Shown piece after piece: positions 61,432 to 63,971 of a stretch of 64,000 bases of DNA. The translations under genes and the position numbers were made by a program. Under the pieces are notes generated by a model that worked only from the letters and a program-made list of their open reading frames with translations, was not told where the DNA came from and did not search any database. The stretch covers positions 256,001-320,000 of the forward strand of contig CAXWPJ010000009.1 of assembly GCA_963664115.2 (NCBI GenBank), written 5' to 3'. The DNA comes from Terriglobia bacterium. Its GTDB lineage: Bacteria; Acidobacteriota; Terriglobia; 20CM-2-55-15. Within the stretch, counting starts at the first letter, position 1, and each line of letters starts with the position of its first letter.

Positions 61432-62583
61432 ATGAAGGACATCCTCCAGGAACTCGAAACGATCCTGCCGGACGGCGTTCGGCTTCTCGAACGCATAGTC
61501 AATCTGGAATCACCCAGCTACGACCGGGCACTGGTCAATCGACTCGTTCAGTTGCTGGCCGACGAATTCGGAAAGCTCGGCGCCGCAACCACTCGCATGC
61601 CCGAAGAAGATCGAGGCGACCACATGTTGATTCGTTTCCCAGGCGAAAGCGATACGCCAATCATGCTTCTGGGACATACCGACACGGTCTGGCCGAAAGG
61701 CACGCTGGTCGAACGTCCGTTCACGATAGACGGTGACATCGCGACCGGCCCCGGAGTATTCGACATGAAGGCCGGAATCGTAATGATGTGGATGGCCATG
61801 CGCACGCTCCTTCAAGTTCGGGGAAAGTTGACACATCCCATATCGATTCTCCTTATCAGCAATGAGGAAGTCGGGAGTCCAGGCTCCAGAGCGCTCGTCC
61901 GGAGTCAGGCCGCCGGGGTCGGTGCCGTGCTGGTGCTGGAGCCGCCATTGCCGGGCGGCACTCTGAAAACGACCCGCAATGGGATGGGACGTTTCGTCGT
62001 GAAGGCGGTGGGAAAGGCGGCTCATACCGGCATCAATCCTGAGGACGGAGTTAACGCTGTTGAAGAGATTGCCCACCAGATATTGCGTATCCGGGAACTC
62101 GGCGATGTCGGGAAAAAGACGACCGTAACAGTCGCCGTCGTCGAAGGTGGCACCCGTCCCAACGTCGTTCCCGAGGAATGCTTTGTGCAAGTTGATGCAC
62201 GCACCCCTAGCCAGGAGGAGGCAGAGCGGATCACCACAGCGATAAACTCACTCAAACCCGTTCTTGAGGGGGCACGGCTGGAAGTAGACGGTGCGTTTCG
62301 GCGGCCACCGCTCGAGCCTACGCCCGGGAATACGAAGCTTTTCGACTGTGCCCGAGAAATAGCTGGCGAGTTGGGTCGCGAACTCACAGGAGGTGCGACC
62401 GGGGGCACGTCCGACGGTAACTTGACCTCGGCCATGGGAGTGCCAACCCTCGATGGCCTGGGGGCCCTCGGACTGGGAGCGCATCAGCTCGAAGAGCGAG
62501 TTGAATTATCGTCCCTCCCCTGGCGAGCGGCATTAGTCGCCGGGCTGATCGAACGAATCGGGAAATACCGCGGCCTCCGGTAG
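61432..62583 (+). CDS. M20 metallopeptidase (carboxypeptidase G2-like)
   Basis: GHTDTVWP, GPGVFDMKAG, NEEVGS, GGTSDGN, GAH. Confidence 0.9.
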   Translation: MKDILQELETILPDGVRLLERIVNLESPSYDRALVNRLVQLLADEFGKLGAATTRMPEEDRGDHMLIRFPGESDTPIMLLGHTDTVWPKGTLVERPFTIDGDIATGPGVFDMKAGIVMMWMAMRTLLQVRGKLTHPISILLISNEEVGSPGSRALVRSQAAGVGAVLVLEPPLPGGTLKTTRNGMGRFVVKAVGKAAHTGINPEDGVNAVEEIAHQILRIRELGDVGKKTTVTVAVVEGGTRPNVVPEECFVQVDARTPSQEEAERITTAINSLKPVLEGARLEVDGAFRRPPLEPTPGNTKLFDCAREIAGELGRELTGGATGGTSDGNLTSAMGVPTLDGLGALGLGAHQLEERVELSSLPWRAALVAGLIERIGKYRGLR

Positions 62584-62618
62584 TGTCCTAATAGTGGGTG
62601 GGTTTTGAATTTCGCTTC

Positions 62619-62978
62619 TTAGGATGCCGGTTTCGCGTTTTCTTCTTTAGGGGCGGCCGATTCTGTTTTGGCGGCATCAATAGCATCGATCTGTCTCTGA
62701 AGATAGCCGATTAGATTACGCGCCATTTGGTGTGGCATTGATACACCGACAAGAGGCCTAACTATAACGATGTCTTTATCTGATGGGTTGGGAACGAACT
62801 CGCCGAAGACTATTCTAAATTCTAAAGGATCATGCATCAGTCGCAAAACGCTGGCATGCTTATACTCAACGCTAGTGAACAGCTGATTTATGAGGCGGAA
62901 GTTACCCTCGGCTTCTTCCTTGCTCACCTCTTCCCTCGAAAAACGAATATCATTATCTGGCATGTAATATCGTTCCAT
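62619..62978 (-). CDS. DUF3467-like small protein, third gene of the TA module
   Basis: EFRIVFG...VRPLVGVSMPHQMARNLIGYLQRQI pattern; overlaps the antitoxin 3' end; start 62978 or 62963. Confidence 0.55.
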   Translation of the reverse strand: MERYYMPDNDIRFSREEVSKEEAEGNFRLINQLFTSVEYKHASVLRLMHDPLEFRIVFGEFVPNPSDKDIVIVRPLVGVSMPHQMARNLIGYLQRQIDAIDAAKTESAAPKEENAKPAS

Positions 62979-63588
62979 CCGTACCTGTCTCTTTGCCCCA
63001 GAGCGAAGATTTCGATGAACCTCCATGTGGCTCGTTCTGTGTCACAGAATCGGCGAGAAAAGTAATCTCTCCCGTCTGCTGAAATTCTTGAAGCACTGGT
63101 TCCTTTCCCGAACCTACAGCCACAGAAAGATGCGGAACCGCTTCCAGTGCGCCGCTAGTTCCAGCGGACGGCGCACCGGCGCTATTGGCAGCATATTCTT
63201 GCGACTCCTCAAGTCCTTGCCTATGAAATTCTGGATCTTCCGAGAAAGAAACTCTCTCAAAGCTAGCTGATCCCTGAACGCCAAGATCTGATTCAAGAGA
63301 GCCGAAATCTTCGAATGATACCCTCAGCCGTAAATCGAAAGCCTTAGCCAGCCTTTTCAGCGTGTTAATGCTCCAAGCTGAATAGTTGACGTCTTCAAGA
63401 ACGGAAATTCTGGGCTGCGCCATAGCCGAGAGATCTCCAAGCGCGGCCTGGGACAGATTCCTTTGCTCTCTTAAAACCTTAATCTGCATGGCGATCATTG
63501 AGTTTAAGTGTGCTTCTGCAAAGGCATGGCGATATTCATGGTCTTTCATATCGCTGTCGTGTCGCAATTCTTCAAAAATTTCATTCAT
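62953..63588 (-). CDS. XRE/HigA-type HTH antitoxin with a long C-terminal extension
   Basis: IAMQIKVLREQRNLSQAALG...QPRISVLED...SINTLKRLAKAFD; about 110-aa low-complexity tail. Confidence 0.82.
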   Translation of the reverse strand: MNEIFEELRHDSDMKDHEYRHAFAEAHLNSMIAMQIKVLREQRNLSQAALGDLSAMAQPRISVLEDVNYSAWSINTLKRLAKAFDLRLRVSFEDFGSLESDLGVQGSASFERVSFSEDPEFHRQGLEESQEYAANSAGAPSAGTSGALEAVPHLSVAVGSGKEPVLQEFQQTGEITFLADSVTQNEPHGGSSKSSLWGKETGTDGTILHAR

Positions 63589-63971
63589 CGAAAACGTCTC
63601 CTCTTCATATTTCGGAGAAGTATCAGTCTGTTCTCGTCGGCGATATTGGGAGCGTTTACCGGATCTAGCTCGCCGTCTCGTTCAACTGCTCCGAATAGAA
63701 ATGTGAATTCAGCGTCATTATCGATTGGTCCAACGCAAATCATTGGTCGTAACGCTCTTGTTGGCGTGTTCACCCTAAACTTTCGGATATGCCGAAAAAG
63801 AGGACCGGTAAGCAGCCCGGCTGGAAGGTCCGGACCATACTGCTTCAAAAGCAGGACTTTTTGCTTAAAAGCAGCGATGTCACTCGGTTGTAGATCTACA
63901 GAACGTATCCAAACGCCAATGACACTTGTCACGCAATCCGCTTCCGTAAAGTCGTAAACACGCCACGCCAC
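63585..63971 (-). CDS. RelE/HigB (Gp49)-like toxin
   Basis: W.V..F...I..W, LLKQYGPDL, IRKFRV...ALRP, FTFLFGAVERD; ATGA overlap with the HTH gene. Confidence 0.65.
   Translation of the reverse strand: MAWRVYDFTEADCVTSVIGVWIRSVDLQPSDIAAFKQKVLLLKQYGPDLPAGLLTGPLFRHIRKFRVNTPTRALRPMICVGPIDNDAEFTFLFGAVERDGELDPVNAPNIADENRLILLRNMKRRRFR

Follow-up and report, generated by a model that had tools for sequence, protein, structure and literature searches.

A toxin-antitoxin operon with a variable antitoxin tail and a DUF3467-like third gene inside an IS1-family transposon: a candidate TAC-like system with a non-SecB partner

A 64,000-nucleotide stretch of DNA from a Terriglobia bacterium (Acidobacteriota), here called the window, carries on its minus strand three overlapping genes that make up one operon inside a 4.1-kb IS1-family transposon and that encode, in order, a predicted toxin, a helix-turn-helix (HTH) protein with a long and variable C-terminal tail, and a remote member of the DUF3467 family. 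By sequence, this module lies outside the TAC family as defined by SecB, and yet it is built like a TAC system. We consider it somewhat better supported than not (a probability of about 0.55) that the module follows the logic of chaperone addiction with a non-SecB partner, a DUF3467 protein replacing SecB. An earlier note on the window had put the module forward as a candidate non-SecB TAC system; the gene order, the tracking of the third gene by tail length, the presence of DUF3467 in the SecB slot of one MqsRA-type locus and the lack of sequence kinship between gene 3 and SecB speak for that proposal.

Calling of open reading frames in the window returned the three genes as described in that note, with the start of gene 2 overlapping the end of gene 1 by 4 nt (ATGA) and gene 3 overlapping gene 2 by 11 nt, and the lower GC content also mentioned there is apparent as well (0.48 for the module versus 0.568 for the window). 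This patch of low GC makes up the left part, one half, of the transposon, a context absent from the earlier note. The possibility that the tail of gene 2 is an assembly frameshift was ruled out because DNA contigs from two separate sequencing studies span the genes gaplessly, with 1 and 3 differing letters.

The transposon encloses the three genes between inverted ends. The left terminal inverted repeat of 23 nt (62579..62601) is 91% complementary to the right repeat, which lies beyond the end of the window (genome contig C9 322632-322654; L001 10632-10654), and, by sequence comparison, the 8-nt target-site duplication (CGGCCTCC, 62571..62578, plus strand) is repeated just past the right end. 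A divergent DDE transposase that is interrupted by an IS256 (C9 320301-322642, plus strand) matches the Pfam family DDE_Tnp_IS1 (PF03400) with an E-value of 6.6e-7, above the Pfam cut-off, so all features of the IS1 family, namely, the DDE transposase, the 23-nt inverted repeats and the 8-nt duplication, are present; the subgroup is presumably ISMhu11. The sequencing contigs also contain weak evidence of an empty site, a joint at which 8 letters agree with both flanks. The element inserted into a peptidase-like gene (window 61432-62583), which we take to be of the M20 type, within its final codons; a TAG in the left repeat is the present stop codon of this gene, and only its last few residues are altered. 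Five more loci of the genome have an IS1-like transposase of this kind, and the IS256 is present in dozens of near-identical copies.

Gene 1 (63585..63971, minus strand; 128 aa, GTG start), delineated from its open reading frame, its kin upstream of the HTH gene at related loci and a weak profile match, is predicted to encode a toxin of the Gp49/RelE-like (HigB) type, although this assignment is weak. The position of a TATAAT box, 4 nt ahead of the GTG, suggests that the transcript may lack a leader. What remains of the RelE/HigB likeness claimed in the earlier note is a profile match: gene 1 itself had no matches in Pfam, NCBIfam, PADLOC, PHROGs or PDB, whereas hhalign matched the profile of its family to Gp49 proteins along 99 columns (probability 49%, E 1.7e-4), and 4 of 56 family members weakly matched Pfam Gp49 (best E 0.001). 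Kin of the toxin precede the HTH gene in 134 of the 143 dereplicated related loci in the best-match set described below. The part of the source consulted presents Gp49 toxins as mRNases that depend on the ribosome (PMC11980606).

Gene 2 (62953-63588, minus strand, an open reading frame of 211 aa) consists of two sharply different parts. The conserved core, residues 1-121 (63226..63588, minus strand), contains an XRE-type HTH domain (Pfam HTH_37, E 8e-8) and an extension that ends in SF..DP.F, and is predicted to be a HigA-like antitoxin. Across 120 homologues, conservation extends up to F121 and divergence is complete thereafter, which sets the variable tail at 90 aa, residues 122-211 (62953..63225 with the stop codon, minus strand), rich in serine, glycine and alanine. 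The tail of about 110 aa given in the earlier note has to be shortened because residues 95-121 form a conserved family motif, with F95, L110, F115, D118 and F121, and its low complexity turns out to be only modest (entropy of 3.1-3.3 bits for residues 121-165 versus 3.4-3.7 bits for residues 1-105, and 3.15 bits over residues 91-120); both hydrophobic patches that it listed, VPHLSVAV and EITFLAD, are found within the tail. The dN/dS ratio is 0.08 in the core and 0.35 in the tail, the latter being an underestimate, given that pairs which could not be aligned were left out. A tail-only search retrieved a single sequence, a 98% twin. If stops were as frequent as in the other frames, only 13% of stretches would be expected to stay open for 40 codons. 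The aromatic residues of the tail are Y132, F169, F177 and W197, of which F169 and W197 are retained, as judged by eye, in both alignable kin; across the family, the aromatic fraction of the tails is 0.05-0.06 versus 0.107 in the core. Visual inspection also suggests that certain features of the tails go with the clade of the toxin-antitoxin pair, whichever of the two partner families follows. We regard the tail as a candidate chaperone-addiction-like element.

Gene 3 (62619..62963, minus strand) encodes a protein of 114 aa that starts at the third methionine of the frame (MPDNDI, 62963), as do 11 of 12 homologues. A longer start, which would give 135 aa, was considered and rejected in favor of the third methionine on the basis of the homologue starts. 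Taken alone, gene 3 matches Pfam DUF3467 (PF11950) below the cut-off (16.2 bits, E 0.011); a hidden Markov model of 28 other third genes, built without gene 3 or its close kin, gave it 33.2 bits, with reversed controls at or below -0.4 bits, and the hhalign comparison of gene 3 with DUF3467 reached 96.7%. PF11950 was matched by 27 of these 28 short third genes, 22 of them above the cut-off. The suggestion of a DUF3467-like protein thus holds in the form of remote membership detected by profile, and so does the suggestion that, by sequence, it is not a SecB: the profile-profile probability for SecB was 0.1%, Pfam SecB matched none of the 28 third genes, and a 40-sequence profile of the gene 3 type found no SecB in the PDB at E<=5, the positive control being a 3-sequence profile of MqsRA-linked genes that found Rv1957 at 9e-7. 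The structural model of gene 3 predicts three beta strands and a long C-terminal helix with a pLDDT of 62. Foldseek found nothing significant for this model (best E 0.28), and VIA-align gave a best Z of 4.4, to other folds, with no structural match reaching Z 5; SecB was not among the fold-search rows, an observation that, with a shallow model of this confidence, does not exclude a SecB fold. A complex prediction for two copies of gene 3 with tail residues 122-211 scored 0.00, carrying no weight either way. The search of a representative library with gene 3 gave one match and that of PADLOC gave none; the top Atlas match is a DUF3467 cluster (0.85), which is a lead only.

The antitoxin profile was used to collect 164 related loci (the best 80 of 125 from genomes, the best 80 of 388 from metagenomes and 4 from viral contigs), mostly from Acidobacteriota and deltaproteobacteria-type genomes, which, together with the window's own locus, were dereplicated at 90% core identity to 143; the profiles that classify third genes as DUF3467 or as a 220-aa family, denoted F220, were built from the first 80 loci. 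Directly downstream of the tail, this best-match set shows F220 at 78 loci, DUF3467 at 38, another gene at 14 and a contig edge at 13, and the two families never occur at the same locus. When the 14 other cases were inspected by hand, two turned out to have DUF6941-like genes, one a further F220 and one a DUF3467 gene interrupted by an insertion. The linkage of gene 3 in other genomes, which the earlier note had named as a check, is indeed found, the order of toxin, antitoxin and third gene being conserved in 116 of the 143 loci. Measured from the stop codon of the antitoxin, the closest ATG of the third gene is no more than 40 nt away at 31 of 36 loci with DUF3467 and at 66 of 76 with F220. 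On a quick tree of toxin and core that has 121 rows and leaves out edge loci and loci without a toxin, DUF3467 accounts for 21 changes, at least 15 of which are forced by well-supported branches, and comparison of the DUF3467 and F220 profiles indicates no kinship (0.2%). To judge from these sequences, the slot has undergone exchange between unrelated families rather than loss. A third type of partner, weakly similar to DUF6941 (E 0.004 in L059), is found at L059:5464-5913 and in L080, behind tails of 37-53 aa. In the order to which the host belongs, all five loci with toxin kin, among 35 genomes, have a tailed HTH gene and a third gene, four times DUF3467 and once F220. Only 4 related loci come from viral contigs, a scan of viral contigs for F220 found none, and no kin of the antitoxin were found in plasmids. 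An IS1-like transposase is seen at 45 of the 143 dereplicated loci, a lower bound given the limited flanks, and before dereplication it was divergent and upstream in 50 of 51 matching loci.

Ordinary two-gene Gp49(HigB)-HTH(HigA) pairs (PF05973), as far as the portion of PMC11980606 consulted describes them, share with the present module the toxin-first order, the overlapping genes, the XRE-type HTH domain of the antitoxin and, by a weak profile match, the toxin. They differ in that the antitoxins are short, ending right after the domain (in the 27 of 30 control loci that were readable, the following open reading frames comprise about 92-127 codons, with one of 143 that is unclear), and in that neither DUF3467 nor F220 occurs within 1.5 kb of any of these 27 pairs; in addition, the toxin family described here falls below the Pfam threshold. 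In the best-match set, only 2 of the 116 loci that have one of the two families, compared with 7 of the 13 that have neither, possess tails shorter than 40 aa, and the family tails have a median of 68-76 aa when a third gene follows. The corresponding Fisher p of 6e-7 is overstated because it ignores kinship: the seven short-tail loci include two sisters, two without toxin kin and one with a DUF6941-like third gene, and when these are removed, about three independent events are left. At L056, the sequence passes directly from the core to what corresponds to the final helix of a DUF3467 protein (E 2.4e-4), which implies that the tail and the third gene were deleted together whereas the toxin gene was kept; this natural deletion is consistent with the notion that deletion of the tail removes the need for the partner.

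An alternative explanation, which we consider unlikely, is that the module is an ordinary two-gene pair with independent cargo. The tail would then be either a spacer that is translated or what is left of an exchange of cassettes, and would stay open only to couple translation of the gene at the end of the transposon. Such a spacer would fit the positions of the tail stop, which abuts the start of the third gene, and of the third gene itself, which adjoins the end of the element, as well as the loss of alignability, which is rapid even between closely related tails, and the long tails of L049 (69 aa) and L071 (55 aa), where no third gene is in view. Genome G033, in which the distal tail and gene 3 (77% DNA identity; 70% identity between the gene 3 proteins) are attached to a different toxin and HTH core, illustrates the portability of the two and in this respect counts for the non-SecB partner, yet it can be read in favor of a spacer as well. 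The DNA identity starts abruptly at tail codon 168 and extends to the end of the element; the last 44 codons of gene 2 (62956-63087) are common to the window and G033 and are about neutral (pN 0.37, pS 0.30), and only the first 13 of them look conserved (9 of 13 identical). Given that pN is about equal to pS, the co-transfer may be due to DNA linkage alone, that is, the distal tail may have travelled with gene 3 only as linked DNA. Motif searches point partly in the same direction: no common motif was found family-wide in tails of the DUF3467 type, and a hydrophobic motif, (N/K/D/G/Q/R)-hydrophobic-hydrophobic-x-(F/Y/M/I), is overrepresented in the tails that go with F220 (present in 18 of 79, against a shuffle mean of 4.9) and shows no such enrichment in those of the DUF3467 type (4 of 39, against 3.3). 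Translational coupling, however, needs no spacer of 50-100 codons, as the ordinary pairs that stop right after the domain illustrate, and an unconstrained cargo position would be expected to accept diverse genes, whereas only two families fill 116 of the 130 non-edge loci. Furthermore, the same two families are found behind tails on altogether different heads.

Such different heads came to light in two kinds of searches. Among the best 30 MqsA loci in 301 genomes of the class, three consist of an MqsR-like gene (called so, here and below, by position only), a tailed MqsA and a SecB-like gene (L304, L306 and L316); the latter genes are not recognized as SecB by Pfam, and their profile matches the M. 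tuberculosis SecB Rv1957 with an E-value of 9e-7. At a further locus, L310 (G376 C1 208524-209622), an MqsR-like gene and an MqsA with a 107-aa, aromatic-rich tail are followed by DUF3467, which here occupies exactly the slot that SecB holds in the three kin. This MqsA-DUF3467 locus is the best second candidate after the module in the window. When the search started from the third gene instead, F220 (18 loci) was found behind a tailed HTH gene in 10 cases (three of them already in the set, with two further weak matches left out), behind a small tailed membrane-type protein in four and behind a tailed HicB in one (L220), three cases being unclear or broken. The small protein that precedes F220 in L211, L213, L218 and L221 has a hydrophobic N-terminal stretch and a low-complexity tail, and in L211 and L221 it is itself preceded by a second small membrane-type gene; these loci possibly represent a membrane toxin-antitoxin pair that uses the same cassette. 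The 30 best loci from the corresponding search with DUF3467 include 6 behind the HTH family of the window, one behind a tailed MqsA, one at a contig edge and 22 stand-alone genes, a result that is partly circular inasmuch as 5 of the 6 HTH-linked loci came from the query alignment.

Most DUF3467 genes of this phylum stand alone. A match to DUF3467 was detected in 91 of 151 sampled genomes of the phylum, mostly as a single copy, and also in three well-known control genomes, and the HTH core or toxin was located within 1.5 kb of none of the 30 best canonical loci of the phylum (both phylum counts take in genome G058). Canonical members of PF11950 in this phylum are mostly single-copy and stand-alone, whereas gene 3 is divergent and linked to a toxin-antitoxin pair; it is the only DUF3467-type copy detected in its genome, with no canonical one above the threshold there. 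In a prophage-like stretch on an Anoxybacillus plasmid (L207; NZ_CP015439.1 218767-221904), DUF3467 adjoins one more putative toxin-antitoxin pair, the genes being arranged otherwise than here, namely, a LexA-like repressor, DUF3467, a PBECR2-like nuclease, DUF2283 and a recombinase. Several of the stand-alone DUF3467 proteins across the phylum (L177-L206) have VGF/IGF-like C-terminal tips, which, we assume, resemble ClpP-docking loops. These tips raise the prospect that gene 3 does bind the tail, although with the opposite sign, as an adaptor or trigger that hands the tailed antitoxin, or else the toxin, to a protease, and the A/G-rich tips in which many tails end could be seen in the same light. 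We find this scenario quite improbable: gene 3 and its aligned toxin-antitoxin-linked kin lack VGF/IGF-like tips, the A/G-rich tips may instead reflect an overlapping ribosome-binding site, and a protein that destroys the antitoxin and is always translated along with it would be expected to be lethal unless further controlled.

F220, represented by L023:5567-6229 and 77 other dereplicated loci, is the commonest partner in the slot. The model of this family is confident (pLDDT 93.5) and two-lobed and resembles TBP (Z 8.8, rmsd 4.8, 166 aligned) as well as the RNA-binding domains of KA1/METTL16, and its Atlas matches are limited to unnamed clusters and a weak DUF2113. This resemblance brings up another possibility, namely, that the third gene encodes a nucleic-acid-binding factor that acts on the DNA of the element, on a tRNA-like RNA or on phage nucleic acid, its tie to the toxin-antitoxin pair being regulation only. 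PC4 is among the best, non-significant Foldseek rows for the gene 3 model (E 0.29), and a tRNA-like gene is indeed part of the element. This gene, identified by Rfam alignment beyond the end of the window (C9 320103-320177; L001 8103-8177; plus strand), is located between gene 1 and the transposase, reads GCU at the anticodon, forms a 7/5 cloverleaf of class I whose variable loop is short, and lacks CCA; it is not an 8/4 or 9/3 allo-tRNA. Among the 116 loci with enough flank, a tRNA occupies the same slot in 31, versus 0.53 expected, with many anticodons, the kin having UAU, UUA and others. We nevertheless consider this possibility about as improbable as that of a protease adaptor: no tRNA was detected, at the default threshold, at 66 of 93 loci with a third gene, the likeness to PC4 rests on a low-confidence model whose best Z is to other folds, and the tails would be left unexplained.

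Odd tRNAs have been associated with toxin-antitoxin genes and transposons, according to the sections consulted of two reports (PMC5389517; PMC7609411). The irregular or allo-tRNA loci of Acidobacteria described by Mukai et al. are similar to the locus analyzed here in that an odd tRNA lies beside a toxin-antitoxin pair and a transposase, and differ in that those allo-tRNAs are 8/4 or 9/3; the portions consulted of the text and supplement name no third gene or tail at these loci (PMC5389517). A short variable loop and a serine anticodon (GCU or ACU) are seen in 14 of the 31 slot tRNAs (the window's locus, L015, L022-L024, L030, L031, L033, L047, L073, L078, L107, L108 and L142), which, judging by length, or by Rfam alignment in the case of the copy next to gene 1 only, do not belong to the 8/4 or 9/3 type. 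This copy is spanned by one RNA-library contig; the RNA-library contigs, which provide a hint only, cover it at a depth of 28 and part of gene 1 at a depth of 3, and leave genes 2 and 3 uncovered.

The known TAC systems (M. tuberculosis HigBA1-Rv1957, E. coli HigBAC, MqsRAC and CmdTAC) share with the present module the order of toxin, antitoxin and third gene, the combination of a RelE-family toxin with an HTH antitoxin, the long and highly variable antitoxin tail and the mobile location. As described in the parts consulted of the respective sources, they use a SecB-like chaperone, which is the sensor in phage defence (PMC5105189; bioRxiv 2024.02.24.581848), their antitoxins belong to the HigA, MqsA and HicB families with equally variable tails (PMC5105189), and, in HigBAC, aromatic residues of the tail anchor SecB (bioRxiv 2024.02.24.581848). 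The wider family described here has the same antitoxin heads, HigA-type, MqsA and HicB. It differs from the known systems in the third gene, which is DUF3467, the TBP-fold F220 or a DUF6941-like gene, with no detectable sequence kinship to SecB; in the tails, which are not aromatic-rich on average; and in the carrier, an IS1-type transposon rather than a prophage. In the literature covered, to which subscription journals and bioRxiv supplements did not belong, we found no description of a DUF3467, TAC-like or IS1-passenger module of this kind.

We return to chaperone addiction with a DUF3467 partner, for which toxicity, neutralization, binding of the tail, the sense of the control and a possible part in defence are inferred. 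Gene 1 would be an mRNA-cutting toxin of the Gp49/RelE type, and the core of gene 2 would neutralize it and repress the operon, whereas the 90-aa tail would destabilize the antitoxin unless bound by gene 3. Should gene 3 be removed or occupied, be it by a phage protein, as in HigBAC, or through loss of the element, the toxin would be freed. Against this scheme stand the lack of a motif in the DUF3467-type tails and the paucity, on average, of aromatic residues in the tails overall, the near-neutral evolution of the distal tail shared with G033, the small number of independent short-tail events, the long tails of L049 and L071, the tail features that go with the clade, the weak assignment of the toxin, the few viral loci and the lack of PADLOC matches for genes 1 and 3, and the fact that the fold of neither partner matches a known chaperone, with the caveat of the pLDDT of 62 for gene 3.

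A broader version of this idea, which we put forward tentatively and with the odds somewhat against it, is that chaperone addiction is a general plug-in, in which a disordered tail and a dedicated tail-binding protein form a portable cassette for control and sensing. At least three unrelated folds, namely, DUF3467, the TBP-like 220-aa family and the DUF6941-like proteins, would then be interchangeable with SecB and would have been grafted onto antitoxins of the HigA, MqsA and HicB types and onto small membrane proteins. If this is the case, DUF3467 would be a widespread, unrecognized holdase chaperone, the housekeeping form of which was co-opted as SecB was. The swapping of unrelated proteins in a single slot would widen the TAC class and point to new phage-sensing or protein-stabilizing folds, and it would provide the first testable function for DUF3467 and for the unnamed, TBP-like family F220.
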